Of a stretch of DNA of 64,000 nt, positions 4,637-18,904 are shown piece after piece. The stretch lies in the NCBI RefSeq assembly GCF_055900595.2, contig NZ_CM148325.1; one strand, 5' to 3'. Position 1 is the stretch's first letter; each line of letters opens with the position of its first letter. The translations under genes and the position numbers were made by a program. The notes beneath the pieces are model-generated. The model had not been told where the DNA came from, searched no databases, and saw only the letters and a program-made list of their open reading frames with translations.

Positions 4637-4649
4637 ATAAGGAGTGATT

Positions 4650-6053
4650 ATGTCTGACCATAATCCACTGACATTAAAACTGAATCTGCGGGAAAAAATC
4701 GCTTATGGCATGGGCGACGTCGGTTCGAATTTAATGCTTAGCATCGGCACTCTGTATCTCCTCAAATTTTATACCGATGAATTAGGGATGCCTGCTTACT
4801 ATGGCGGGATTATCTTTCTGGTGGCAAAATTCTTTACCGCGTTTACCGATATGCTCACCGGATTTTTACTCGACTCGCGGAAAAATATTGGGCCTAAAGG
4901 CAAATTTCGTCCCTTTATTTTATATGCAGCGGTTCCGGCGGCGTTAATTGCAACGCTCCAGTTTATCGCCACCACTTTTAGTTTGCCGATTAAAACGACG
5001 ATTGCCACCGCGCTGTTTATGATGTTTGGACTTTCATACAGTCTGATGAACTGCTCGTATGGCGCGATGATTCCAGCAATTACCAAAAACCCCAATGAGC
5101 GCGCGCAGCTTGCGGCTTACCGCCAGGGTGGTGCAACCATAGGGCTATTGATTTGTACCGTAGCATTTATTCCACTGCAGTCGCTTTTTTCTGACTCCAC
5201 TGTCGGTTATGCCTGCGCGGCACTGATGTTCTCCATTGGTGGCTTTATTTTTATGATGCTGTGCTACAGAGGCGTCAAAGAGCATTATGTGGACACGACG
5301 CCAACCGGACATAAAGCCAGTATTCTCAAATTTTTTTGCGCGATATTTCGTAATCCGCCATTGCTGGTTTTATGCATTGCTAACCTGTGTACCCTGGCGG
5401 CATTTAATATCAAACTGGCAATTCAGGTCTATTACACCCAGTATGTGCTGAATGATATTAATTTATTGTCGTGGATGGGATTCTTCAGTATGGGATGCAT
5501 CCTCATCGGCGTATTGCTGGTGCCATTAACTGTAAAATGTTTTGGTAAAAAACAGGTTTATTTAGCTGGCATGGTGCTGTGGGCGGTGGGGGATATCCTG
5601 AATTATTTCTGGGGCAGTAACTCTTTCACTTTCGTCATGTTCTCTTGTGTCGCCTTTTTTGGTACGGCCTTTGTGAACAGCCTGAACTGGGCGTTAGTTC
5701 CTGACACCGTAGATTACGGTGAATGGAAAACCGGTATTCGTGCCGAAGGTTCTGTTTATACTGGTTATACCTTCTTTCGTAAAATTTCTGCCGCACTTGC
5801 TGGCTTCTTGCCAGGCATTATGCTGACGCAAATCGGTTATGTTCCCAACATCGCGCAAAGCGATGCAACATTACAGGGTTTGCGTCAGCTCATTTTTATT
5901 TGGCCTTGTGCGCTGGCGATAATTGCTGCATTGACGATGGGATTCTTTTACACGCTCAATGAAAAACGTTTTGCGTTAATTATTGAGGACATCAACCAAC
6001 GTAAAAATAAAGAGATTGAGACAAAAGAAAAAACTGCTTCCGTAACGTTATAA
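4650..6053 (+). CDS. yihO: GPH-family transporter YihO (proposed sulfoquinovose importer)
   Basis: ATG at 4650 lies 6 nt after AAGGAG (the track starts 2 codons earlier at GTG 4644) and gives 467 aa. It is highly similar to YihP along its full length, for example shared LYLLKFYTD, NPNERA and YYTQYVLND. Confidence 0.9.
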   Translation: MSDHNPLTLKLNLREKIAYGMGDVGSNLMLSIGTLYLLKFYTDELGMPAYYGGIIFLVAKFFTAFTDMLTGFLLDSRKNIGPKGKFRPFILYAAVPAALIATLQFIATTFSLPIKTTIATALFMMFGLSYSLMNCSYGAMIPAITKNPNERAQLAAYRQGGATIGLLICTVAFIPLQSLFSDSTVGYACAALMFSIGGFIFMMLCYRGVKEHYVDTTPTGHKASILKFFCAIFRNPPLLVLCIANLCTLAAFNIKLAIQVYYTQYVLNDINLLSWMGFFSMGCILIGVLLVPLTVKCFGKKQVYLAGMVLWAVGDILNYFWGSNSFTFVMFSCVAFFGTAFVNSLNWALVPDTVDYGEWKTGIRAEGSVYTGYTFFRKISAALAGFLPGIMLTQIGYVPNIAQSDATLQGLRQLIFIWPCALAIIAALTMGFFYTLNEKRFALIIEDINQRKNKEIETKEKTASVTL

Positions 6054-6120
6054 ATGTCAATAGCCGCTATTTCCATCCTGATGGGTGGCGGCCCCCCTAC
6101 GTTAAAAAAATGGACTTATT

Positions 6121-6813
6121 ATGAAAAAGATTAATGCAATAATTTTATTATCTTCTCTGACCTCTGCCTCGGTATTTGCTGGCGCATACGTCGAAAACAG
6201 GGAGGCATATAATCTCGCCTCCGATCAGGGCGAGGTTATGCTACGTGTGGGTTATAACTTCGATATGGGCGCGGGTATCATGTTAACCAATACCTACAAC
6301 TTTCAGCGCGAAGATGAACTAAAACATGGATATAACGAAATTGAAGGCTGGTATCCGTTATTTAAACCAACCGATAAATTAACCATCCAGCCCGGTGGAT
6401 TAATTAATGATAAGAGCGCCGGTTCCGGTGGTGCAGTATATCTGGACGTCAACTATAAATTTGTACCATGGTTTAATCTGACAGTGCGAAATCGCTATAA
6501 CCATAATAACTACAGTTCAACAGATTTGAACGGGGAGCTGGATAATAATGACACCTATGAAATTGGTACCTACTGGAATTTCAAAATCACCGATAAATTC
6601 TCCTATACATTTGAGCCACATTATTTTATACGCGTAAATGACTTTAATAGCAGCAATGGAAAAGATCATCATTGGGAAATCACTAATACCTTCCGTTACC
6701 GTATTAATGAACACTGGCTGCCTTATTTCGAATTACGCTGGTTAGACCGCAACGTCGAGCCGTATCACCGCGAGCAAAACCAGATTCGTATCGGAACGAA
6801 GTATTTCTTCTGA
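6121..6813 (+). CDS. ompL: outer membrane porin OmpL
   Basis: 230-aa ORF with signal peptide MKKINAIILLSSLTSASVFA and alternating beta-strand pattern. It ends in the aromatic residues YFF typical of OMPs and sits downstream of yihO as in K-12. Confidence 0.92.
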   Translation: MKKINAIILLSSLTSASVFAGAYVENREAYNLASDQGEVMLRVGYNFDMGAGIMLTNTYNFQREDELKHGYNEIEGWYPLFKPTDKLTIQPGGLINDKSAGSGGAVYLDVNYKFVPWFNLTVRNRYNHNNYSSTDLNGELDNNDTYEIGTYWNFKITDKFSYTFEPHYFIRVNDFNSSNGKDHHWEITNTFRYRINEHWLPYFELRWLDRNVEPYHREQNQIRIGTKYFF

Positions 6814-7025: not shown

Positions 7026-7874
7026 ATGGAAAAGAAATTTTTTATGGATTGGGATAATGAAATCCCGCAAGAAGAGTTTATTAACAATATTTTAGCCGAT
7101 GAAGACCTGCCTAAAATCCGCTCTCTGATTATTGGTCGTTGGGGGGAGTGCTGGGATGAGGAAAGTTGCCAACCAATAATCGACATGTTTGTTGAACATG
7201 CCGAACGCTTTGCTCATCTCGAATCCCTATTTATCGGCGATATGGAAAGCGAAGAGTGTGAAATTTCGTGGATAAAACAAGGGGATTATTCTCGTCTGTA
7301 TGCTGCGCTGCCGAACCTCAAAAAGCTGACAATTAAAGGTACTCAGGGCCTGGAACTGGGAGAAATCGCCCATGACAAACTGGAGCATCTGGAAATTATC
7401 TCTGGCGGTACGCCGTGTGACGTGTTCGCCTCATTGCAAAATGCCCAACTGCCTGCGTTAAAAACACTTATCGTTTATATTGGCGTTGAGAATTATGGTT
7501 TTGATGCATCGCTGGATATCGTAATGAAGCTGGCGTCGAAATCCCTCTTCCCGAGCCTGACGCATCTTGGCCTGGTGAACAGCGAAGAGCAAAACGAAAT
7601 CGTCCGCCGCGTGCTGGAAAGCGACATTCTGCCGCAACTGGAAGTGCTGGCACTCTCCTGCGGTACGCTTACCGACGAAGGTGCAGAGCATCTTCTCAAA
7701 CATGCCGATCGCCTTAGCCATCTGAAACTGCTGGATTTGTACCATCATTACCTGACAGAAGAGATGCAGAAAAAACTGCAAAAAACACTGACATGTACTC
7801 TCGAATTATCAGAAGCGCTAACGCCTGAAGTCTATGATGACGAAATTTATATGCATGCGATGTATACCGAATAA
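7026..7874 (+). CDS. cytoplasmic leucine-rich-repeat protein (ribonuclease-inhibitor/RNI-like LRR) with an acidic Tyr-rich C-terminal tail; function unknown
   Basis: 282-aa ORF with AAGGAA RBS and no signal peptide. LRR units recur: LPKIRSLIIG, FAHLESLFIG, LPNLKKLTIKG, LEHLEIISG, LPALKTLIVYIG, FPSLTHLGLVN, LPQLEVLALSCGTLTDEGAEHLLKH and LSHLKLLDLYHHYLTEE. The tail is PEVYDDEIYMHAMYTE*. Confidence 0.8.
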   Translation: MEKKFFMDWDNEIPQEEFINNILADEDLPKIRSLIIGRWGECWDEESCQPIIDMFVEHAERFAHLESLFIGDMESEECEISWIKQGDYSRLYAALPNLKKLTIKGTQGLELGEIAHDKLEHLEIISGGTPCDVFASLQNAQLPALKTLIVYIGVENYGFDASLDIVMKLASKSLFPSLTHLGLVNSEEQNEIVRRVLESDILPQLEVLALSCGTLTDEGAEHLLKHADRLSHLKLLDLYHHYLTEEMQKKLQKTLTCTLELSEALTPEVYDDEIYMHAMYTE

Positions 7875-7886
7875 ATGACATTTATT

Positions 7887-7906
7887 GGGAGAGAGTCATC
7901 TCTCCC
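7887..7906 (+). terminator. perfect 8-bp stem-loop directly after the LRR gene; candidate partial terminator/attenuator
   Basis: GGGAGAGA (7887-7894), loop GTCA, TCTCTCCC (7899-7906), followed by the T-rich ATTATTTAT. It lies 13 nt after the LRR stop codon. Confidence 0.55.
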
Positions 7907-7934
7907 ATTATTTATCACAGAAAAGGAATTCTTC

Positions 7935-8921
7935 GTGATTACGCTAATTGGTCATCCTGAAAGCAAACGCACATTTTATTTTTGCCAGGCAGCGTCACGC
8001 TTACAGGAACATATCAACGTAGTGAGCTATGATCAAGCACTTACCCTGCTCTTAAATAAAGGCATGGTAAAAATCGATCCCCCCTTACATCAGGAAACAG
8101 ATATTCGCTTAATTAATACGGTTAGCCAAAACTATATTACTTTTTTACAAAAAATGGCTACCAGAAGGGAGATCCGTTTTATTAACTCACCAGAAGGTAT
8201 TATTCATCTTCTGGATAAACGCCACTGTAAGCAACGATTAGTCGAACACGCGATCCCGACACCGCCAATATTAGCGGATGATATCCGTAGCTACGATCAA
8301 CTGATCGCCTGTATGCGCAGCGAAAAGGTTTATCGCGTGTTTATTAAGCCGAATTTCGGATCAGGGGCCGCCGGGGTGCTGGCTTTGAGTCTACATCCCG
8401 GCGATAACCGTCAGGTGCTTTATTGCGCCATCCAGGTTGCAGGTGACAGGCTGGTGAACAGTAAACATATTATCCGCTATGAAAACAGCGGTGATATTAC
8501 GTTGATTGTGAATGCTATTTTACAACAAGACAATATTATCGAACGCTGGCTGGCAAAAGCCAGAGTGGGCAATAAAAGCTACGATTTACGCATCGTGTAC
8601 GTTAATGGTGAAATCGTCTGGCGGGTTGTCAGAACATCATCACAGCCGATCACCAATTTACATTTACAAAATGAAGCTATCCGTTTTGCCGATCTTAATT
8701 TACCCGTAGAAAAAGTAGCTGAAATTGATACGCTTTGTCTCAACGCCATGACCCTCTATCCGGACGTACACATTGCCGGGCTTGACGTATTACTCACGCA
8801 AAATTTAACACCCTATATTATCGAAATTAACGGCCAGGGCGATCTTATTTATCAGGACACCTGCGAAAAAAACAAAATTTATCAACGCCAGATTCAGGTA
8901 ATGAGAGAACATCATGTATAA
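7935..8921 (+). CDS. ATP-grasp fold ligase (RimK / glutathione-synthetase-like); substrate unknown
   Basis: The track ORF starts at ATG 7875, but that start would place the hairpin inside the CDS. GTG 7935 (VITLIGHPES...) has an AAAGGA RBS. ATP-grasp motifs are present: YRVFIKPNFGSGAAGVLAL, YDLRIVYVNGEIV and AGLDVLLTQNLTPYIIEINGQGD. The start codon is uncertain. Confidence 0.75.
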   Translation: MITLIGHPESKRTFYFCQAASRLQEHINVVSYDQALTLLLNKGMVKIDPPLHQETDIRLINTVSQNYITFLQKMATRREIRFINSPEGIIHLLDKRHCKQRLVEHAIPTPPILADDIRSYDQLIACMRSEKVYRVFIKPNFGSGAAGVLALSLHPGDNRQVLYCAIQVAGDRLVNSKHIIRYENSGDITLIVNAILQQDNIIERWLAKARVGNKSYDLRIVYVNGEIVWRVVRTSSQPITNLHLQNEAIRFADLNLPVEKVAEIDTLCLNAMTLYPDVHIAGLDVLLTQNLTPYIIEINGQGDLIYQDTCEKNKIYQRQIQVMREHHV

Positions 8922-9786
8922 CGTAACAGACGAAGTACCGGAAAATACCCGCACGGCAATCCATTCCTGCGATGGCGAAATCAATCTGAATGATTTAATT
9001 GCCAGGGAAGCCAATATCCTGTTTGTGGTGCTTGATTCCCTGCGTTTTGATATTGCGTTTCAGGAACAAGAGGCGGGAAATACACCAAATATTAACCGCT
9101 ATGGTCGCTGGATAAAGTGTGAAGCCGCTGGCAATTTTACCTGGCCTTCGCATCATTCGATGTTCTCTGGTTTTATGCCTAAGCCGCTGGAAGCTGCACC
9201 TGGTCATTCAATGCTCTTTTTCCCGAAAGATATTGGTTTAGGTCGTTTAGGGCCAAAAAATGCGTTCGCGTTCAGCGAAGAGACGTGGATTAAAGGGCTG
9301 GAAAACAAAGGTTACCGCACTATCTGCGTGGGTGGCGTCTCCTTTTTTAATAACCGCTCAGGGATGGGAAAAGTGTTCCCGGCGATGTTTAAAGAGAGTT
9401 ACTGGTATCCTAATTTCTCCTGCACGGTGAAAGAGAGCATGGATAATCAGCTCACCTTAATTAACAAAAAGGTGAACGCTGAACAGCCGCTGATGATGTA
9501 TATCAATATCGACACCATTCATTATCCGAATCATTTTTATATTGAAAATGCCAAACCTGGCGATACGGTAGAAACTCACGCCGCTGCCCTGCATTATATT
9601 GATGCCAGAATCGAAAAACTTTTCGATATCTTTCGGCAAACCGGGCGGGAGACGTTAGTTATTCTCTGTTCCGATCATGGCACCTGCTACGGGGAAGACG
9701 GTAAATATTTCCACAGTTTTAACCATCCGATTGTGAATACCGTACCCTATTTTCACTTTGTGTTAGACGGCAAAGACCATGAATAA
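8914..9786 (+). CDS. alkaline-phosphatase-superfamily hydrolase (sulfatase/NPP-like fold), soluble, with a predicted Thr nucleophile
   Basis: 290-aa ORF whose ATG overlaps the upstream stop by 8 nt. Motifs are the N-terminal metal-ligand motif VVLDSLRFD, the nucleophile motif F-T-W-P-S-H-H-S-M-F-S-G (T-x-P-x-H, at 9139 onward) and the C-terminal CSDHGTCYGEDG (D-H metal ligands). Confidence 0.75.
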   Translation: MYNVTDEVPENTRTAIHSCDGEINLNDLIAREANILFVVLDSLRFDIAFQEQEAGNTPNINRYGRWIKCEAAGNFTWPSHHSMFSGFMPKPLEAAPGHSMLFFPKDIGLGRLGPKNAFAFSEETWIKGLENKGYRTICVGGVSFFNNRSGMGKVFPAMFKESYWYPNFSCTVKESMDNQLTLINKKVNAEQPLMMYINIDTIHYPNHFYIENAKPGDTVETHAAALHYIDARIEKLFDIFRQTGRETLVILCSDHGTCYGEDGKYFHSFNHPIVNTVPYFHFVLDGKDHE

Positions 9787-11017
9787 TGAATCGATTTATC
9801 AGCAATATATGTACAGTTACCCGCATAAGACCGCTTATCGGGAATTAAACAATATTGCTTTTGCGGATGTGAAATCGCGTATTTACGAGCATAAAACACA
9901 TCTCTATATTCATATGCCTTTTTGCCAGAGCCGCTGCGGGTTTTGTAATCTCTTTACCTGCACGGGGGCAGACAATGCCTTTATCGACAACTACATAGAA
10001 GCAATTATTATCCAGGCCCGGCAAATGCAACTTGCGCCTGTAGACTGGGCCAGTTTTACCATTGGCGGCGGTACGCCACTACTGCTTAATACCGGGCAAC
10101 TGTCACGGTTGTTTCGCGGGGTGTTTGACGAATTACAGGTCGATGCGCAGATTTTTAAGGCAATTGAAACATCGCCTTCCGATACCACCGCCGAAAAGGT
10201 CGCGTTATTGCGCCAGCTTGCGGTAAACCGCGTCAGTATTGGCATTCAGAGTTTTAACGATCTGGAACTTGCCACATTACACCGCCGCCATAGTGCGGAA
10301 AATGCCCATCGGGCGCTGGAGCTACTGCGCAGGGGTAATTTCCCGATAATCAATATTGATATTATTTACGGTATTCCTGGTCAAACAGCCGCAAGTTTAA
10401 TGGCGTCGCTTAATCAAGCATTAGATTATCAGCCTGACGAACTGTTTCTGTACCCGCTATATAACATGCCGCGTCAGCCGGATATGTATAGCCTCTATAT
10501 TGAAGCCCGCGATCGCTTATTGCATGAAGGTTATACGCAAACGTCAATGCGCCGTTTTGTGCGGGTGAATAATGATTCGGCGGCTGAAAGTTGTGGCTTT
10601 GAAAATTCGCTGGCGCTTGGCGCGGGCGGGCGCAGTTATCTTGGCAATTTACATTACTGCACGCCGTGGTCGCAAAACCAGCCCGCATCGCGGCAAATTG
10701 TCACGGATTTTATCGCCCGGCCAGATAAGACCCAGATTCACCACGGCTATGTACTTTCACAAGCAGAAATGAAGCGGCGTTTTATTATCAAGAATCTCTT
10801 TTTCTATAAGGGGCTTTCGTTACGGGATTATCAGCACCAGTTCTTCTCTGAGGTATTAAGCGATTTTCCCCTGCTGGGCGATTTCATCAAACAAGATTAC
10901 TGCCACCAGCAGGATAATCGTATTCTGCTCACCGCGCAGGGTTTAGCGCTTTCGGACCAGCTTGGCCCGCTGTTTATCTCCCCGGAAGTTCGCAGGCTGG
11001 AGACGCATAAACGATGA
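9779..11017 (+). CDS. HemN/HemW-like (class C-type) radical SAM enzyme
   Basis: 412-aa ORF whose ATG overlaps the upstream stop by 8 nt. CX3CX2C motif FCQSRCGFC lies at 9923-9946. It aligns by eye with the authentic HemN in this window: YIHMPFCQSRCGFC vs YVHIPFCHKLCYFC, TIGGGTPLLL vs HWGGGTPTYL, NRVSIGIQSFND vs NRLSMGVQDFNK, NIDIIYGIPGQT vs NIDLIYGLPKQT. Confidence 0.85.
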   Translation: MNNESIYQQYMYSYPHKTAYRELNNIAFADVKSRIYEHKTHLYIHMPFCQSRCGFCNLFTCTGADNAFIDNYIEAIIIQARQMQLAPVDWASFTIGGGTPLLLNTGQLSRLFRGVFDELQVDAQIFKAIETSPSDTTAEKVALLRQLAVNRVSIGIQSFNDLELATLHRRHSAENAHRALELLRRGNFPIINIDIIYGIPGQTAASLMASLNQALDYQPDELFLYPLYNMPRQPDMYSLYIEARDRLLHEGYTQTSMRRFVRVNNDSAAESCGFENSLALGAGGRSYLGNLHYCTPWSQNQPASRQIVTDFIARPDKTQIHHGYVLSQAEMKRRFIIKNLFFYKGLSLRDYQHQFFSEVLSDFPLLGDFIKQDYCHQQDNRILLTAQGLALSDQLGPLFISPEVRRLETHKR

Positions 11018-11871
11018 CGCTCAAGCAGATCCAGACGCTGATTTATCGCGGCGAGATAAAGTCGTGTAATTATCGCTGTGGTTATTGCCCTTTTCATAAA
11101 CAAGACCGCAATGATAAACAGCAGGATGAAGTGGCATTATGGCGCATGGTTGAACATTTACCGGCGCAGGGTTCACCATTAAATGTATTTATTACGCCCT
11201 ACGGCGAAGCATTGCGTTATCGTTATTATATGGCGGCGATGGCGGAAATCAGCCGCTATTCCCATGTGCAGGCGGTGGGTATTCAGACCAACGCCTCTTT
11301 TAATTTATCCACCTTAGTCGCGACTTTTCAGCACTCTCAGGGCGATTTAGCAAAGCTGCGGCTGTGGTGTTCGTTTCATCCTTCCCAGGCAAGTAAAGAA
11401 GTTTTCCTTAAACAGTTACTGGCAATTAAGGACACGGGGATTACCTGTTCTGTGGGGGCCGTCGCCAGCGTAGCCGACTATGACGAATTACAGTGGTTAC
11501 GCGCGCATCTTCCTCCCGATATCTATTTCTGGCTAAACGCCAATGAGCGCGATAAAAGGCCCACCAGCGACGAAAGAAATAGCCAGTTTCAGTTGCTGGA
11601 CCCGCTTTATTATCTGGAAACCAGCCTCTGGCCTGCCAATGTCGAGTTTTGTCTGGGCGGCAAAAAGAGCGTGTTTATGAATGCTGATGGCGATCTCTTC
11701 GCCTGTAATATCAGCAAAATTAAGATTGGCAATTTATATCAACAGCAACTTTCATCTCCGTCTTGTATGTCCAGGCACTGTCACTGTTATCTGGCTTATC
11801 ACCTGCGTGAGGATATTCCGGCCCTCTCACAATTTGATGCTGAACGCTGCTTTCGGATCTTCTCGTTATGA
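11014..11871 (+). CDS. small radical SAM enzyme with a C-terminal Cys-rich (SPASM/twitch-like) region
   Basis: 285-aa ORF with an ATGA overlap with the upstream gene. CX3CX2C motif SCNYRCGYC lies at 11065-11088, and a YGEAL (GGE-like) motif is present. The C-terminus carries CLGGKKSVFMNADGDLFAC then CMSRHCHC (from 11650). Confidence 0.8.
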   Translation: MTLKQIQTLIYRGEIKSCNYRCGYCPFHKQDRNDKQQDEVALWRMVEHLPAQGSPLNVFITPYGEALRYRYYMAAMAEISRYSHVQAVGIQTNASFNLSTLVATFQHSQGDLAKLRLWCSFHPSQASKEVFLKQLLAIKDTGITCSVGAVASVADYDELQWLRAHLPPDIYFWLNANERDKRPTSDERNSQFQLLDPLYYLETSLWPANVEFCLGGKKSVFMNADGDLFACNISKIKIGNLYQQQLSSPSCMSRHCHCYLAYHLREDIPALSQFDAERCFRIFSL

Positions 11872-12563
11872 TCTGGCGGTTAATCGCGCTCGATTTAGAC
11901 GGCACATTGCTGAACAGCAAGAAGATGATTTCCCCTGCGTCTGTTTCGGCACTGCAAAGCGCACAACAGGCAGGTGTGAAAATTATCCTCGCCACCGGAC
12001 GTTCGCACAGCGAAGCCCTGCCTTATTACCAACAATTGCAGTTAACCGAGCCGATGATTTGCTGTAACGGCAGCTATCTTTATCATCCGCGCCAGCGGCA
12101 AATATTGCGTCCGCTGGCGCTTGATATCCACAAGGTGGAAAGGCTACGACTCTGGTTTTCACAACAAATATTGCAGCCAAATATTTATACGTACGATGAT
12201 TTTGTTTTGCAGATTAGCCTGATACACCGCAAGGCTTCGTTATTGCGCCAGACAGAGGAATTTGCCCGACAAGAATTATCGCTGGCCTGTAGCTGGTCCT
12301 GGCATCATCAACTGGATATTACACAGGTGGGGTGTGAGAAAGGCAAAAGTCTGGCCTGGTATGCCCGACAGCAAAATATCGTGCTGGATGAAATCATCGC
12401 CTTTGGCGATAACGATAATGATGCGGGGATGCTGCGGATGGTAGGCAAAGGGATTGCGATGGGCAATGGCAGTTCGCTGGCAAAAGTCAGTGCTGACCGC
12501 GTTATTGGTCACAACAACACAGATGCTATTGCGGATTTTCTTGATGCGCAGGGTTTCAGATGA
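11868..12563 (+). CDS. HAD-superfamily Cof-type (IIB) phosphatase
   Basis: 231-aa ORF with an ATGA overlap with the upstream gene. It has motif I LDLDGTLL, motif II ILATGRS and motif IV AFGDNDNDAGML. Confidence 0.85.
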   Translation: MIWRLIALDLDGTLLNSKKMISPASVSALQSAQQAGVKIILATGRSHSEALPYYQQLQLTEPMICCNGSYLYHPRQRQILRPLALDIHKVERLRLWFSQQILQPNIYTYDDFVLQISLIHRKASLLRQTEEFARQELSLACSWSWHHQLDITQVGCEKGKSLAWYARQQNIVLDEIIAFGDNDNDAGMLRMVGKGIAMGNGSSLAKVSADRVIGHNNTDAIADFLDAQGFR

Positions 12564-12605: not shown

Positions 12606-12637
12606 CAAAAAACCTGCCATCGCTGGCAGGTTTTTTA
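12606..12637. terminator. bidirectional rho-independent terminator shared by the HAD gene (+) and typA (-)
   Basis: CCTGCCA (12613-12619) pairs with TGGCAGG (12624-12630). It is flanked by an A-run upstream and T6 downstream, so it reads as a terminator on both strands. Confidence 0.8.
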
Positions 12638-12653
12638 TGACTAAAAAACGAAA

Positions 12654-14477
12654 TTAATCGTCTTTCGGTGCGCGGTTGGCGCGACGACGATCGTTTTCCG
12701 TCAGGTGACGTTTACGAATACGGATAGAGGTCGGAGTCACTTCTACCAGTTCGTCATCATCGATGAACTCCAGCGCTTGTTCCAGCGTCATGCGGATAGG
12801 CGGAACCAGAACAACGGCTTCGTCAGTACCGGAAGCACGCATGTTGGTCAGTTTCTTACCGGTCAGACAGTTTACAGTCAGGTCGTTAGAACGGCTGTGA
12901 ATACCGATAATCTGACCTTCGTAAACTTCTGCACCGTGACCGAGGAACAGCTTACCGCGATCCTGCAGACCGAACAGCGCGAACGCGACCGCTTTACCCT
13001 GACCGTTAGAGATCAGTACGCCGTTCTGACGCTGACCCACTTCACCCGGACGCACGTCGTCGTAGTGGCTGAAGGTGGAGTACAACAGACCCGTACCAGA
13101 GGTCATGGTCATGAACTCAGAACGGAAGCCAATCAGACCACGGCTTGGGATCACGTAGTCGAGACGTACGCGGCCTTTACCGTCTGGATTCATGTTTTTC
13201 AGGTCGCCTTTACGTTCGCCCAGCGCCTGCATCACAGAACCCTGATGCTGTTCTTCAACGTCCAGCGTCACGTTTTCATACGGCTCTTGTTTACGACCGT
13301 CGATTTCACGGAAGATAACTTTCGGACGGGATACCGCCAGTTCGAAACCTTCACGACGCATGTTTTCGATCAGAACAGACAGGTGCAGTTCGCCACGACC
13401 AGAAACGCGGAACGCATCGGCGTCTTCAGTTTCTTCTACGCGCAGCGCAACGTTGTGTACCAGTTCTTTGTTCAGACGATCCAGAATCTGACGAGACGTT
13501 ACGAACTTACCTTCTTTACCGCAGAACGGCGAGGTGTTAACGCAGAAGAACATAGAAACGGTCGGCTCATCAACGGAGAGTGCCGGCAGCGCTTCAACGT
13601 TTTGCGTGTCGCAAACGGTGTCAGAAATGTTCAGTTCGCCCAGGCCCGTGATCGCCACGATATCGCCAGCTTCCGCCAGATCGGTTTCGATACGTTCCAG
13701 ACCGAGGTGGCCCAGCACTTTACCGACTTTCGCGTTGCGGGTTTTGCCTTCGCTATCGATGATAGTAACTTGCTGGTTCGGCTTCACTTTACCGCGCTTG
13801 ATGCGGCCAATGCCGATAACGCCAACATAGCTGTTGTAATCGAGCTGAGAAATCTGCATCTGGAACGGACCGTCAAGGTCAACGTCCGGCGCAGGAACGT
13901 GGTCAACAATTGCCTGATACAGCGGGGTCATGTCTTCCGCCATATCTTCGTGGTCCAGACCGGCGATACCGTTCAGCGCAGAAGCGTAAACGATCGGGAA
14001 GTCCAGCTGCTCGTCGGTCGCGTCGAGGTTAACGAACAGGTCGAATACCTGATCCACAACCCAGTCAGGACGCGCGCCAGGGCGGTCAACTTTGTTGATA
14101 ACAACAATTGGCTTCAGGCCGTAAGCAAACGCTTTTTTGGTTACGAAGCGCGTTTGCGGCATCGGGCCGTCAAATGCGTCAACCACCAGCAGCACTGAGT
14201 CTACCATGGACATTACACGTTCAACTTCACCACCGAAGTCGGCGTGCCCCGGGGTATCAACGATGTTGATACGGTAATCATTCCATTTGATAGCGGTGTT
14301 TTTCGCGAGGATGGTAATCCCACGCTCTTTCTCCAAATCGTTGGAGTCCATCACGCGCTCTTGGGTTTCGGCACGAGAGTCGAACGTACCGGATTGTTGG
14401 AGCAGCTTGTCTACCAGGGTGGTTTTACCATGGTCTACGTGCGCGATGATGGCGATATTACGCAATTTTTCGATCAC
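12654..14477 (-). CDS. typA: ribosome-dependent translational GTPase BipA/TypA
   Basis: 607-aa ORF starting [26 protein letters not shown] with G-domain motifs [13 protein letters not shown] and NKVD. It is identical in style to K-12 BipA. Confidence 0.98.
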
Positions 14478-14628
14478 AACTTTGCCTCAGGCATTAGAAA
14501 TAGCGCGTTATTGTACACGGATTAATCGCACTACAAAACAGGATCACAAACATCCTCCGCAAACAAGTATTGCAGAGTCCCTTTGTGATCGCTTTCACGG
14601 AGCATAAAAAGGGTTATCCAAAGGTCAT

Positions 14629-14719
14629 TGCACCAATATGGTGCTTAATGTTTCCATTGAAGCACTATATTGGTGCAATATTCACATCGTGGTGCAGCCC
14701 TTTTGCACGATGGTGCGCA
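14629..14719. promoter_or_regulatory. NtrC (NRI) enhancer sites upstream of glnA
   Basis: Repeated TGCACC-N5-GGTGCA-type dyads: TGCACCAATATGGTGCT (14629-14645), GCACTATATTGGTGCA (14662-14677), TCACATCGTGGTGCA and TGCACGATGGTGCGCA (to 14719). Confidence 0.85.
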
Positions 14720-14750
14720 TGATAACGCCTTTTAGGGGCAATTTAAAAGT

Positions 14751-14766
14751 TGGCACAGTTTTCGCT
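14751..14766 (+). promoter_or_regulatory. glnAp2 sigma54 (-24/-12) promoter
   Basis: TGGCACAGTTTTCGCT has GG and GC elements at the correct sigma54 spacing. It lies about 85 nt upstream of the glnA ATG and downstream of the NtrC sites. Confidence 0.85.
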
Positions 14767-14849
14767 TTATCTTTTTTACGGCGACACGGCCAAAATAATT
14801 GCAGATTTCGTTACCACGACGACCATGACCAATCCAGGAGAGTTAAAGT

Positions 14850-16259
14850 ATGTCCGCTGAACACGTACTGACGATGCTGAACGAGCACGAAGTGAAGTTT
14901 GTTGATTTGCGCTTCACCGATACCAAAGGTAAAGAACAGCACGTCACTATCCCTGCTCATCAGGTGAATGCTGAATTCTTCGAAGAAGGCAAAATGTTTG
15001 ACGGCTCCTCGATTGGCGGCTGGAAAGGCATTAACGAATCCGACATGGTGCTGATGCCAGACGCATCCACCGCAGTGATTGACCCGTTCTTCGCGGACTC
15101 TACCCTGATTATCCGTTGCGATATCCTTGAACCAGGCACCCTGCAAGGCTATGACCGTGACCCGCGTTCCATCGCGAAGCGCGCTGAAGATTACCTGCGT
15201 TCTACTGGCATTGCCGACACCGTACTGTTCGGGCCAGAACCTGAATTCTTCCTGTTCGATGACATCCGTTTCGGCGCGTCTATCTCCGGTTCTCATGTTG
15301 CCATCGACGATATCGAAGGTGCATGGAACTCCTCCACCAAATATGAAGGTGGTAACAAAGGTCACCGTCCGGCAGTGAAAGGCGGTTACTTCCCGGTTCC
15401 GCCGGTAGACTCTGCTCAGGATATCCGTTCTGAAATGTGTCTGGTGATGGAACAGATGGGACTGGTAGTTGAAGCCCATCACCACGAAGTAGCGACTGCT
15501 GGTCAGAACGAAGTGGCTACCCGCTTCAATACCATGACCAAAAAAGCTGACGAAATTCAGATCTACAAATATGTTGTGCACAACGTAGCACACCGCTTCG
15601 GTAAAACCGCGACCTTTATGCCAAAACCGATGTTCGGTGATAACGGCTCCGGTATGCACTGCCACATGTCACTGTCTAAAAACGGCGTCAACCTGTTCGC
15701 TGGCGACAAATATGCAGGTCTGTCTGAGCAGGCGTTGTACTACATTGGCGGCGTAATCAAACACGCTAAAGCAATTAACGCCCTGGCAAACCCGACCACC
15801 AACTCTTACAAGCGTCTGGTCCCGGGCTACGAAGCACCGGTAATGCTGGCTTACTCTGCGCGCAACCGTTCTGCGTCTATCCGTATTCCAGTGGTTTCTT
15901 CTCCGAAAGCACGTCGTATCGAAGTCCGTTTCCCGGACCCAGCGGCTAACCCGTACCTGTGCTTTGCTGCCCTGCTGATGGCCGGTCTTGATGGTATCAA
16001 GAACAAGATCCACCCAGGCGAAGCCATGGACAAAAACCTGTATGACCTGCCGCCAGAAGAAGCGAAAGAGATCCCACAGGTTGCAGGCTCTCTGGAAGAA
16101 GCACTGAACGAACTGGATCTGGACCGCGAGTTCCTGAAAGCCGGTGGCGTGTTCACTGACGAAGCCATTGATGCGTACATCGCTCTGCGTCGCGAAGAAA
16201 ATGACCGCGTGCGTATGACTCCGCATCCGGTAGAGTTTGAGCTGTACTACAGCGTCTAA
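14850..16259 (+). CDS. glnA: glutamine synthetase type I
   Basis: 469-aa ORF starting [31 protein letters not shown] with a GGAG RBS. The adenylylation-site region NLYDLPPEE is present. Confidence 0.98.
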
Positions 16260-16346
16260 TAGTTGAAGTTGTACTACCCGGTGCTAAGAAGGCCGGGATT
16301 TAGTTGCCGTGGAAACTTTCAGCCCATCTCTGCATGGGCTTTTTTC
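16260..16346 (+). ncRNA. glnZ: glnA 3'UTR, the expected source of the 3'UTR-derived sRNA GlnZ; boundaries approximate
   Basis: This segment runs from the glnA stop to the intrinsic terminator at 16321-16346. GlnZ is described in enterobacteria as processed from this 3'UTR. The 5' end cannot be determined from sequence alone. Confidence 0.4.
16321..16346 (+). terminator. rho-independent terminator after glnA
   Basis: AGCCCAT (16321-16327), loop CTCTGC, ATGGGCT (16334-16340), followed by T5. Confidence 0.8.
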
Positions 16347-16390
16347 TCCGTAACTTCTTTGATGCTTCGCGCTTTTTATCCGTAAAAAGC

Positions 16391-16412
16391 TATAATGCAC
16401 TAAAATGGTGCA
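16391..16412 (+). promoter_or_regulatory. glnLp: -10 TATAAT overlapped by an NtrC operator
   Basis: TATAAT at 16391-16396 is immediately followed or overlapped by the dyad TGCACTAAAATGGTGCA (16396-12). It lies about 25 nt upstream of the glnL ATG region. Confidence 0.7.
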
Positions 16413-16433
16413 ACCTGTTCAGGAGACTGCTTT

Positions 16434-17483
16434 ATGGCAACAGGCACGCAGCCCGATGCTGGGCAGATCCTCAACTCGCTGATTAACAGTATTTTGTTAA
16501 TTGATGACAACCTGGCGATCCATTACGCCAACCCCGCCGCACAACAACTGCTCGCTCAAAGCTCCCGCAAATTGTTTGGTACACCGTTACCGGAACTGTT
16601 GAGCTACTTCTCATTAAATATCGAGCTGATGCAAGAAAGTCTTGAGGCGGGGCAAGGTTTTACCGATAACGAAGTGACGCTGGTCATCGACGGGCGCTCG
16701 CATATCCTTTCTGTGACGGCCCAGCGTATGCCGGACGGCATGATCCTGCTGGAGATGGCACCGATGGATAACCAGCGCCGCTTAAGTCAGGAACAGCTAC
16801 AGCACGCCCAGCAGGTTGCTGCCCGTGATTTAGTGCGCGGCCTGGCGCATGAGATTAAAAATCCGCTTGGCGGTTTACGTGGCGCGGCCCAGTTGCTCAG
16901 CAAAGCATTACCTGACCCGTCACTGCTCGAATATACCAAAGTGATTATCGAACAGGCGGACCGGCTGCGAAATCTGGTCGACCGTCTGTTGGGGCCGCAG
17001 CTGCCTGGTACGCGCGTTACCGAAAGTATTCACAAAGTGGCTGAACGCGTGGTGACGTTGGTGTCGATGGAACTGCCGGACAACGTGCGGTTGATTCGTG
17101 ATTACGACCCCAGCCTGCCGGAACTGGCGCACGACCCGGATCAAATTGAACAGGTATTGCTGAATATTGTGCGCAATGCACTTCAGGCGCTGGGGCCGGA
17201 AGGTGGTGAAATCATTCTGCGTACCCGCACCGCGTTTCAACTGACTTTACACGGCGAGCGCTATCGGCTGGCGGCGCGGATTGATGTGGAAGATAACGGG
17301 CCAGGCATTCCGCCTCATTTGCAGGATACGCTGTTTTACCCGATGGTCAGCGGCCGCGAAGGTGGCACCGGGCTTGGCTTATCCATCGCCCGTAATTTGA
17401 TTGATCAGCATTCAGGCAAAATTGAATTTACCAGTTGGCCAGGTCATACCGAGTTCTCGGTTTACCTGCCTATCAGGAAATAA
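16434..17483 (+). CDS. glnL: nitrogen regulation sensor histidine kinase NtrB (NRII)
   Basis: 349-aa ORF with H-box [11 protein letters not shown], an N-terminal PAS-like region and an ATPase G-box GTGLGLSIA. Confidence 0.97.
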
Positions 17484-17494
17484 AGGTGACGTTT

Positions 17495-18904
17495 ATGCAA
17501 CGAGGGATAGTCTGGGTAGTCGATGACGATAGTTCCATCCGTTGGGTGCTTGAACGTGCGCTCGCTGGAGCAGGTTTAACCTGTACGACGTTTGAGAACG
17601 GCGCGGAAGTGCTGGAGGCGCTGGCGAGCAAAACACCGGATGTACTGCTGTCGGATATCCGTATGCCGGGAATGGACGGGCTTGCGCTGCTCAAGCAGAT
17701 TAAACAGCGCCATCCGATGCTTCCGGTCATCATTATGACCGCACATTCCGATCTGGATGCTGCCGTCAGCGCCTATCAACAAGGGGCGTTTGATTATCTG
17801 CCTAAACCATTTGATATCGACGAAGCCGTGGCGCTGGTTGAGCGCGCCATCAGCCATTATCAGGAACAGCAGCAACCGCGTAATGTTCAGCTTAACGGCC
17901 CGACGACCGATATCATCGGCGAAGCGCCAGCCATGCAGGACGTGTTCCGGATTATCGGTCGGCTTTCACGTTCTTCTATTAGTGTGCTGATTAACGGCGA
18001 GTCCGGTACCGGTAAAGAATTGGTCGCTCATGCCCTGCATCGCCACAGTCCGCGAGCCAAAGCGCCGTTTATCGCGCTGAATATGGCGGCTATCCCGAAG
18101 GATTTGATCGAATCAGAACTGTTCGGTCACGAGAAAGGCGCGTTTACCGGCGCGAATACCATTCGTCAGGGGCGTTTTGAACAGGCCGATGGCGGCACGT
18201 TATTCCTCGATGAAATTGGCGATATGCCGCTCGATGTACAGACGCGTTTGCTGCGCGTGCTGGCAGACGGTCAGTTTTATCGCGTTGGCGGTTATGCGCC
18301 GGTGAAAGTGGATGTGCGGATTATCGCTGCGACCCACCAGAATCTCGAACAGCGGGTACAGGAAGGCAAGTTCCGTGAGGATTTGTTCCACCGCCTGAAC
18401 GTTATCCGCGTTCATCTGCCGCCATTGCGCGAGCGTCGGGAAGATATTCCCCGTCTGGCACGCCATTTTTTACAGGTTGCCGCGCGCGAACTGGGCGTAG
18501 AAGCGAAGTTGCTGCATCCGGAAACCGAAGCCGCGCTGACGCGTCTGGCATGGCCGGGTAACGTGCGCCAGCTGGAAAACACCTGCCGCTGGCTAACGGT
18601 GATGGCCGCCGGGCAGGAAGTGTTGATTCAGGATTTGCCAGGCGAACTGTTTGAATCAACCGTAGCGGAAAGCCCTTCGCAATTACAGCCGGACAGTTGG
18701 GCAACGCTGTTAGCGCAGTGGGCAGACAGAGCGCTACGTTCCGGTCATCAAAACCTGCTTTCCGAAGCGCAGCCTGAGCTTGAGCGGACATTACTGACAA
18801 CCGCGTTGCGACATACGCAGGGGCATAAACAGGAAGCGGCGCGGCTACTCGGCTGGGGGCGTAACACACTGACGCGGAAGTTAAAAGAGCTGGGGATGGA
18901 GTGA
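17495..18904 (+). CDS. glnG: nitrogen regulation response regulator NtrC (NRI), a sigma54 enhancer-binding protein
   Basis: The start is set at ATG 17495 ([18 protein letters not shown]), giving 469 aa; the track ORF extends 20 codons upstream into glnL. It has a receiver domain, an AAA+ domain with GESGTGKE and GAFTGA motifs, and a C-terminal HTH. Confidence 0.97.

Follow-up and report, generated by a model that had tools for sequence, protein, structure and literature searches.

What reaction is carried out by a compact radical S-adenosylmethionine (SAM) enzyme whose gene lies between those of a second radical SAM protein and a phosphatase, in an operon that also encodes a leucine-rich repeat (LRR) protein? 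This question is raised by a gene of the STM4011 family located at positions 11014-11871 of a 64 000 nucleotide (nt) stretch of contig NZ_CM148325.1 (RefSeq assembly GCF_055900595.2). The whole stretch is referred to here as the window, and features lie on its plus strand unless stated otherwise. STM4011 itself is an ordinary-looking radical SAM protein with a twitch domain, belonging to a family that has a name but whose function is unstudied. It is one of six functions carried by a self-contained, horizontally mobile operon (7026-12563), which are the LRR protein STM4015, the ATP-grasp protein STM4014, the Thr-nucleophile hydrolase STM4013, the HemN-like radical SAM protein STM4012, STM4011, and a phosphatase of the haloacid dehalogenase (HAD) type. 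On balance, we slightly favour a composite reading in which STM4011 is a twitch radical SAM enzyme with an auxiliary cluster site, is coupled to the HAD phosphatase and to the rest of the cassette, and has a substrate that is linked to the C-terminal tail of STM4015.

STM4011 is a radical SAM protein of a catalogued family

The open reading frame (ORF) starts with ATG, encodes 285 amino acids and ends with TGA, as had been stated in the original prediction, which was made from the nucleotide sequence. Its product is a full-length member of NCBIfam family NF038073 ('STM4011 family radical SAM protein'), which it matches with 299.5 bits against a cut-off of 200, residues 8-282 corresponding to profile positions 2-277 of 278. 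The same STM4011 name is given by the Prokaryotic Genome Annotation Pipeline (PGAP) and RefSeq in E. coli genomes of 99.9% identity, and because the profile match and the PGAP annotation carry identical names, the gene can be regarded as already catalogued. We found no functional study of STM4011 in the literature. STM4011, STM4013 or STM4015 are mentioned in passing three times, in transcriptome, chromatin immunoprecipitation (ChIP) and selection tables, and nothing was found on the SEN locus tags or on the function of 2RA8, a Protein Data Bank (PDB) entry that is related to STM4015.

Conservation was counted among 156 unique STM4011 homologs of approximately 30-90% identity and, separately, in an alignment of 40 sequences of 30-91% identity. 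The CX3CX2C motif that binds the radical SAM [4Fe-4S] cluster (C18, C22 and C25; 11065-11088) is present in 153 of the 156 homologs, the remaining three having gaps at this place. All three Cys residues are invariant in the 40-sequence alignment, as is the 'GGE' motif at G64-E65. Pfam model PF04055 gives the window protein 20.9 bits against a gathering score of 29.5, and is matched at E ≤ 0.01 by 36 of the 40 family members, with 1.2e-8 as the best value.

A model of STM4011 that was computed with AlphaFold2 (AF2) from the family alignment has a predicted local distance difference test (pLDDT) score of 94.2 and a predicted template modelling (pTM) score of 0.92. It contains six β/α units, a hairpin (219-222/227-229) between C213 and C231, a short third strand and short C-terminal helices, and thus predicts a core in the form of a (β/α)6 partial barrel that is followed directly by a twitch domain. 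The structures closest to this model are those of BlsE, SkfB, MoaA, SuiB and anSME, and the top matches returned by Foldseek are viperin-like enzymes (E ~4e-7). Because the CX3CX2C motif already starts at residue 18, the protein has no N-terminal domain ahead of its core.

The C-terminal cysteines define a twitch domain

Nine Cys residues had been placed by the original prediction at positions 18, 22 and 25 (nt 11065-11088) and 213, 231, 251, 256, 258 and 279 (nt 11650-11850), and all nine are found there, together with two others, C119 and C145. The sequence context CLGGKKSVFMNADGDLFAC, to which that prediction had drawn attention, is also present and gives the arrangement C213-x12-G226-x4-C231. 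Six of the Cys residues fall within the last 75 positions of the protein, and five of these six proved to be conserved. C213 and C231 occur in all 156 homologs, C256 and C258 in 155 each, C251 in 148 (95%) and G226 in 152. C279, the exception among the six, and C145 are each found in none of the other sequences, and C119 is present in 53 of 156. In the 40-sequence alignment, C213, G226, C231, C251, C256 and C258 are as invariant as the three N-terminal Cys residues. The C-terminal cysteines, C279 aside, have therefore passed the ortholog comparison by which the original prediction was to be judged, and because C213, C231, C251, C256, C258 and G226 are kept across 156 homologs, this conservation identifies a pattern that is more than chance.

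The same prediction had described the region as SPASM/twitch-like, and its twitch component is the part that stands. The Pfam SPASM model (PF13186) aligns positions 1-40 of its 67 with residues 213-247 of STM4011 (E=0.0019), a weak match whose score of 18.9 bits lies just below the gathering score of 21.5. It is matched by 11 of the 40 family members at E ≤ 0.01, the best value being 8.9e-6. The NCBIfam SPASM-domain models give no match to STM4011 at E ≤ 0.01, and the CX2CX5CX3C motif that forms the second half of SPASM domains is found in none of the 156 homologs. Of the seven-Cys motif CX9-15GX4C...CX2CX5CX3C...C with which SPASM domains bind two auxiliary clusters, STM4011 has the first half, C213-x12-G226-x4-C231. 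A full SPASM domain is thus not what the profile searches describe.

The family profile was also compared with all PDB sequences, among which the best match is SkfB (E=1.8e-4). This match is restricted to the SkfB twitch domain, with which STM4011 has a C-x17-C...C-x4-C-x-C pattern in common; a phmmer search with STM4011 as a single sequence returned nothing from the PDB at E ≤ 10. In SkfB, the auxiliary cluster is ligated by Cys351, which follows the β-hairpin, and by Cys385 and Cys387 of a C-x-C pair, and a Cys located before the hairpin is present but lies 12 Å from the cluster, whereas BtrN employs all four positions (PMC6231123). The equivalents of the three SkfB ligands in STM4011 are C231, C256 and C258, and that of the pre-hairpin Cys is C213. 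The radical SAM core is followed directly by C213, the hairpin, C231, and then C256 and C258, which is the order of elements expected for a twitch domain.

Because the Cys residues match the ligand positions of SkfB and BtrN and because CX2CX5CX3C is missing from all 156 homologs, we are highly confident that the C-terminal domain is a twitch (half-SPASM) domain with one auxiliary site rather than a full SPASM domain. The region C213-x12-G226-x4-C231...C251-x4-C256-x-C258 (11650-11787) is the predicted site of this cluster on the grounds of conservation, the half-length SPASM match, the match of the family profile to the SkfB twitch domain and the hairpin of the AF2 model. STM4011 very probably carries one additional Fe-S cluster, for which C213 is likely to be the fourth ligand and C251 would be a near-invariant spare.

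The STM4011 gene is linked to a phosphatase gene and to a conserved cassette

The gene located downstream of STM4011 (11868-12563) encodes a Cof-type HAD-IIB phosphatase of 231 amino acids with a short cap (TIGR00099, 179 bits; Pfam Hydrolase_3, E=2.9e-53). Both of the 4 nt ATGA overlaps that had been described for STM4011 are real: the stop codon of STM4012 occupies 11015-11017 and the start of STM4011 is at 11014, and the HAD start is at 11868 and the stop codon of STM4011 at 11869-11871. The window HAD is shorter than Cof enzymes (231 versus ~270 amino acids) and its match to PRK10530 is split into two pieces, suggesting a cap domain that has been shortened.

To place these genes in a wider context, a scan was made with one genome per species, in which at least 597 species-level genomes carry a relative; 84 loci were analysed. 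In 57 of these loci, including L003, L007 and L009, the STM4011 ORF runs on into a HAD domain of ~200 amino acids, yielding fused ORFs of 480-565 amino acids. Such fusions, with the HAD domain at the C-terminus, also account for 21 of 81 database homologs of STM4011. The fusions keep the HAD motifs, namely FFD[ILV][DE]GT and the counterparts of T43, K158 and D185 of the window HAD. Separate, adjacent genes encode the two proteins in E. coli and Superficieibacter. Two loci that have no HAD carry instead a gene for a His_Phos_1 histidine phosphatase (E ~1e-50) directly downstream of STM4011 (L016, 8456-9103; L027, 8853-9467), as if the phosphatase function had been taken over by a non-homologous enzyme. 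Because of the fusions and of the His_Phos_1 genes at the same position, a dephosphorylation step appears to be tightly coupled to STM4011, and we regard functional coupling of the HAD to STM4011 and to the cassette as highly probable.

The remaining genes of the operon are linked to STM4011 as well. All five STM4011-4015 family genes are present in the window, each with a score above its own NCBIfam cut-off, and neighbouring genes of the operon overlap by 4 to 8 nt or abut. The five genes occur together in 73 of the 84 loci, and in 71 they follow the order STM4015-4014-4013-4012-4011 that is seen in the window; colinear loci span Firmicutes, Bacteroidota, and Beta- and Gammaproteobacteria. 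STM4012, a HemN-like radical SAM protein of 412 amino acids (9779-11017; NF006067, 491.8 bits against a cut-off of 380) that is related to HemW, HemN and ChuW by NCBIfam models, is encoded directly upstream of STM4011 in 80 of the 84 loci. The suggestion that STM4011 acts in consecutive steps with the HemN-like and HAD proteins is strongly supported by this synteny and by the frequency of the fusion.

A candidate ligase and a protein with an invariant tail

The first gene of the operon (7026-7874) encodes STM4015, an LRR protein of 282 amino acids with an isoelectric point (pI) of 4.6 (NF038076, 323 bits), which is a candidate for the carrier or substrate of the system. It is a protein of the ribonuclease inhibitor (RI) type and is in the same family as 2RA8 (E=2e-94), a structural-genomics structure to which no function has been assigned. 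Its conserved acidic C-terminal tail (EVYDDEIYMHAMYTE-COOH, 7827-7871) was compared among 70 unique homologs. In loci L002-L084 an acidic linker is followed by a tail of the form ...[YW]xx[AP]M[LIV]TE-COOH. All 70 homologs have the terminal Glu, and the residues before it are nearly as constant: T(-1) in 67, [LIV](-2) in 69, M(-3) in 63, [AP](-4) in 67, Y/W(-7) in 64 and E/D(-9) in 65. A betaproteobacterial variant ends in ..Y[RK]YVAV[GS]E. In an independent set, obtained with STM4015 as the query (798 matches), TE forms the end of 109 of 110 full-length proteins; the remaining one is a frameshift fusion of Salmonella Typhi. The conserved tail contains no conserved Cys. Such an invariant C-terminus reinforces the idea that the LRR protein may be the substrate to test.

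A second stretch of STM4015, residues 68-85 (7230-7280), has the near-invariant pattern L-x-x-GDM-x-x-E-x-CE-x-SWI-x-Q, in which G71, D72, M73, C78, E79, S81, W82, I83 and Q85 are invariant in 16 sequences. This patch is unusually strict for an LRR protein, which suggests a binding or catalytic site. Bacteroidales proteins of the family are longer (355-416 amino acids; proteins P0137, P0147, P0152 and P0192, and loci L009, L021, L029 and L045), and several of them have an N-terminal WGR domain (PF05406). The longer type is also represented by 2RA8 (B. fragilis Q64V53).

STM4014 is an ATP-grasp ligase whose ORF extends from an ATG at 7875 to 8921. A GTG at 7935 is favoured as the start by PGAP, by the beginning of the NF038074 profile match at residue 23 and by low AF2 pLDDT values at residues 1-20; this GTG is probably the real start and would leave a gap of 60 nt after STM4015. 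The nearest structures to STM4014 are ArgX-LysW, LysX-LysW and RimK, so that the cassette contains the RimK/LysX-type ATP-grasp enzyme by which amino-group carrier systems are recognized. ArgX/LysX and RimK ligate their substrates onto the C-terminal Glu of a protein. In the case of LysX, it is the C-terminal Glu of LysW that receives the substrate (PMC12998189). STM4015, which has a median pI of 4.35 in the family and a net charge of -28.5 in the window protein, is acidic, whereas STM4014 and the radical SAM domain of STM4011 are basic (median pI 8.3 and 8.4 respectively).

The presence or absence of the HAD was also compared with the tail. HAD is missing from all three scored loci with non-TE tails of STM4015 and from 19 of the 68 whose tails end in TE (Fisher p=0.027). 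As the three non-TE loci come from betaproteobacteria that are close relatives, and as HAD is absent from many loci with TE tails too, we did not retain this link between Thr(-1) and the HAD as independent evidence.

A proposed role for STM4011

Starting from family membership, the Cys pattern, the fold, synteny, the gene fusion, conservation of the tail and the structural kinship of the ATP-grasp protein, a sequence of events can be proposed. STM4014 would act on the invariant C-terminal Glu (E282) of the acidic STM4015. The [4Fe-4S] cluster at C18/C22/C25 of STM4011 would give rise to a 5′-deoxyadenosyl radical, which would abstract an H atom from a group belonging to the tail or tethered to it. 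The putative auxiliary cluster would be held by C231, C256 and C258 and likely also by C213; by analogy with BtrN and anSME, a cluster that is fully ligated by Cys would most likely take an electron from the substrate radical, resulting in a net oxidation. The HAD domain would remove a phosphate in a coupled step. Two radical SAM enzymes and two phosphoryl-transfer enzymes would in this way have the tail, or a group tethered to it, as their target.

Several observations weigh against this proposal. The best structural neighbours of STM4011 include the small-molecule enzymes BlsE, MoaA, viperin, DesII and BtrN, and small phospho-esters are the usual substrates of Cof-type HAD-IIB enzymes. STM4011 has no RiPP recognition element (RRE; RiPP, a peptide made by the ribosome and modified after translation) or other peptide-binding domain, since only 17 residues precede the CX3CX2C motif and the AF2 model contains no additional domain. 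NCBIfam and Pfam scans of the operon revealed no release peptidase analogous to LysK. No HAD is encoded beside STM4011 in 24 of the 84 loci, and in 11 of the 84 at least one of the three other genes is missing within 8 kb, three of the 11 being truncated contigs. For the single claim that the substrate of STM4011 is linked to the STM4015 tail, taken separately from the composite reading, we would stop just short of calling it probable.

A more specific version of the proposal, which we put forward tentatively, is that the protein tail serves as a workbench. The ligase would load or extend the Glu of STM4015, and STM4012, STM4011 and the two phosphoryl-transfer enzymes would then remodel the tethered group or the tail itself. 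If true, this would yield a cofactor-like modification that stays bound to the protein or, alternatively, a small molecule that is released, and the logic of amino-group carriers, or that of pyrroloquinoline quinone (PQQ) and mycofactocin biosynthesis, would be extended to a large LRR scaffold. If the tail were the substrate or carrier, an LRR protein would be put to a new use, and the logic of carrier proteins would be combined with radical chemistry in a new way. The HAD fusion, the ..M[LIV]TE-COOH tail of STM4015 and the ligase likeness of STM4014 turn a 'conserved hypothetical' operon into one that can be tested by experiment.

Comparison with known systems

The cassette resembles LysW/LysX (ArgX) and RimK-S6 in that a similar ATP-grasp protein has as its partner a very acidic protein whose last residue is an invariant Glu. 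LysW, however, is a zinc-ribbon carrier of 54 amino acids with an EDWGE tail, whereas the candidate of the cassette is an LRR protein of 282 amino acids with a ..M[LIV]TE tail. In addition, the downstream enzymes of the LysW system are a kinase, a reductase and an aminotransferase, whereas those of the cassette are two radical SAM proteins and two phosphatase-type enzymes, with no LysK-like release enzyme. PqqE/PqqA and MftC/MftA provide another parallel, as SPASM radical SAM enzymes build cofactors from conserved residues near the C-terminus of a peptide in these systems. Unlike the situation proposed for STM4011, PqqA and MftA are short peptides that are bound through an RRE or a chaperone (PqqD), PqqE and MftC have two auxiliary clusters, and a peptidase releases the product.

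SkfB, the sactisynthase of Bacillus subtilis (PDB 6EFN), binds its leader peptide through an N-terminal RRE and forms a Cys-to-Met thioether. STM4011 differs from it in gene context as well as in the missing RRE, and no Cys is conserved in the tail of STM4015. More generally, a sactisynthase-like RiPP maturase would be expected to have a leader-binding domain and a short precursor-peptide gene, and STM4011 has neither; no small precursor-peptide ORF is present within or ahead of the operon. The dehydrogenases BtrN, SpeY and anSME are twitch or SPASM radical SAM enzymes whose auxiliary clusters are fully ligated by Cys. Their identity to STM4011 is only 13-16%, and neither the cyclitol or sulfatase peptide on which they act nor their gene contexts show any relation to it. 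For the STM4011 cluster, an oxidative role is proposed by analogy. BlsE, MoaA, viperin and DesII, which modify nucleosides, nucleotides and sugars, are members of the structural clade of STM4011, but do not match it at the level of sequence. Their auxiliary clusters are arranged differently or are absent, and none of these enzymes is fused to a HAD domain or encoded with an LRR protein.

Alternative explanations

The kinship with enzymes of this kind could mean that STM4011 belongs to a free small-molecule pathway. Its substrate would then be a sugar, cyclitol or nucleotide in soluble, phosphorylated form, the fused HAD would dephosphorylate the product, and the LRR protein would be a scaffold, sensor or regulator. 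This reading agrees with the fold neighbours BtrN, BlsE, DesII, MoaA and viperin and with a HAD of the Cof type, but it leaves unexplained the ..M[LIV]TE-COOH tail and the acidic linker of STM4015, the nearness of STM4014 to three ligases that act on a C-terminal Glu, and the pairing of acidic and basic charges among the proteins. We consider it unlikely, if not strongly so, and if the small molecule were tethered to the tail it would be partly compatible with the proposal made above. It is also conceivable that the C-terminal Cys residues hold no auxiliary Fe-S cluster, and form a structural Zn site, disulphides or catalytic thiols (for example H-atom donors) in a single-cluster radical SAM enzyme with a degenerate twitch fold. 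Viperin, which is in the same structural clade, has no auxiliary cluster, and the Pfam SPASM score of STM4011 is below threshold. In addition, the cluster of crystallized SkfB is a [2Fe-2S] cluster on three ligands only (PMC6231123). Because four Cys residues are invariant in 155-156 of the 156 homologs, exactly where BtrN and SkfB have the ligands of their twitch clusters and together with the G-x4-C hairpin motif (G226, 152 of 156), we regard the absence of a cluster as improbable.

The viperin-like Foldseek matches would fit an anti-phage or conflict cassette in which STM4011, like viperin, produces a nucleotide analogue that is toxic or acts as a signal. The GC content of the island, lower than that of the window (46% versus 51%), and the company that the cassette keeps in locus L002, where bpX0/bpX1/bpX3 genes, recombinases and transposases are its neighbours, also point in this direction. 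Viperins, however, are without the auxiliary-cluster Cys residues, and the genes flanking the cassette vary among loci and are mostly housekeeping genes. PADLOC reported nothing for STM4011, STM4013, STM4014, STM4015 or the HAD, its sole match being a weak one of STM4012 to PDC-M51A (E=9e-6). A role in defence is thus unsupported, and we view it as highly improbable. Less credible still is a maturase function like that of anSME, in which STM4011 would oxidise a Cys or Ser of the 'sulfatase' STM4013 to formylglycine. The nucleophile of STM4013 is an invariant Thr in the sequence N-F-T-x-P-S-H-H, and not the Cys or Ser of a C/S-x-P-x-R motif, and therefore such a role can be ruled out for practical purposes. 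In agreement with this, the anSME model TIGR03942 gives STM4011 15.3 bits against a cut-off of 349, and the second SPASM cluster motif on which a likeness to anSME would depend is missing from the STM4011 family (0 of 156).

STM4013 and the genomic setting of the operon

STM4013/SEN3800 (8914-9786) is a hydrolase of the alkaline-phosphatase superfamily with 290 amino acids and a Thr nucleophile (NF038075, 351 bits; Pfam Sulfatase, E=2.8e-16). Its invariant residues are D41, T76 (in NFTxPSHH) and S253-D254-H255, among which D41 and D254-H255 are the metal ligands of the superfamily. A Thr nucleophile is used by phosphodiesterases and phosphoethanolamine transferases, unlike the formylglycine sulfatases. 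In a metagenome-assembled genome (MAG) of Myxococcaceae, a gene for a bifunctional ATP-sulfurylase/adenosine 5′-phosphosulphate (APS) kinase, that is, a 3′-phosphoadenosine 5′-phosphosulphate (PAPS) synthase, is located between STM4011 and STM4013 (L077, 9201-10961). This hints that the sulfatase-like STM4013 could handle sulphate; a PAPS synthase gene within the cassette was seen in no locus other than L077. An intragenic sigma-54 binding site has been reported in STM4013 of Salmonella (PMC3844500). Its best counterpart in the window gene (9163-9180, minus strand) has three mismatches and has lost the TGGCA core, and the site is thus probably not conserved here.

The genomes with a relative include those of Lachnospiraceae, Oscillospiraceae, Clostridium, Bacteroides, Janthinobacterium, Viridibacterium, Myxococcaceae and Superficieibacter. 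The cassette is found in hundreds of species of gut anaerobes, among them many Lachnospiraceae and Bacteroides, and the operon is present in Salmonella as well. The window belongs to Escherichia coli, in which a 5.5 kb island between ompL and typA is carried by 157 of 5426 complete genomes (~3%), mostly as an allele of 90-95% identity; PGAP gives the genes of the island the same family names as those used here. On one metagenomic contig (L002, 1-3826) the cassette lies beside genes with bpX0, bpX1 and bpX3 domains, and a recombinase, an integrase and transposases are encoded close by. Such a mobile or conflict-island setting was not seen in the other loci examined.

In the window, the end of the operon is marked by a hairpin terminator on the minus strand (12606-12637), which has a 14 bp stem followed by a T-run and is located between the converging HAD and typA genes. 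The island is flanked by yihO/ompL, on the side of the sulfoquinovose locus (4644-6813), and by typA-glnA-glnL-glnG (12654-18904). Because E. coli K-12 has yihLMN between ompL and typA, this interval appears to be a variable site of the replacement type.

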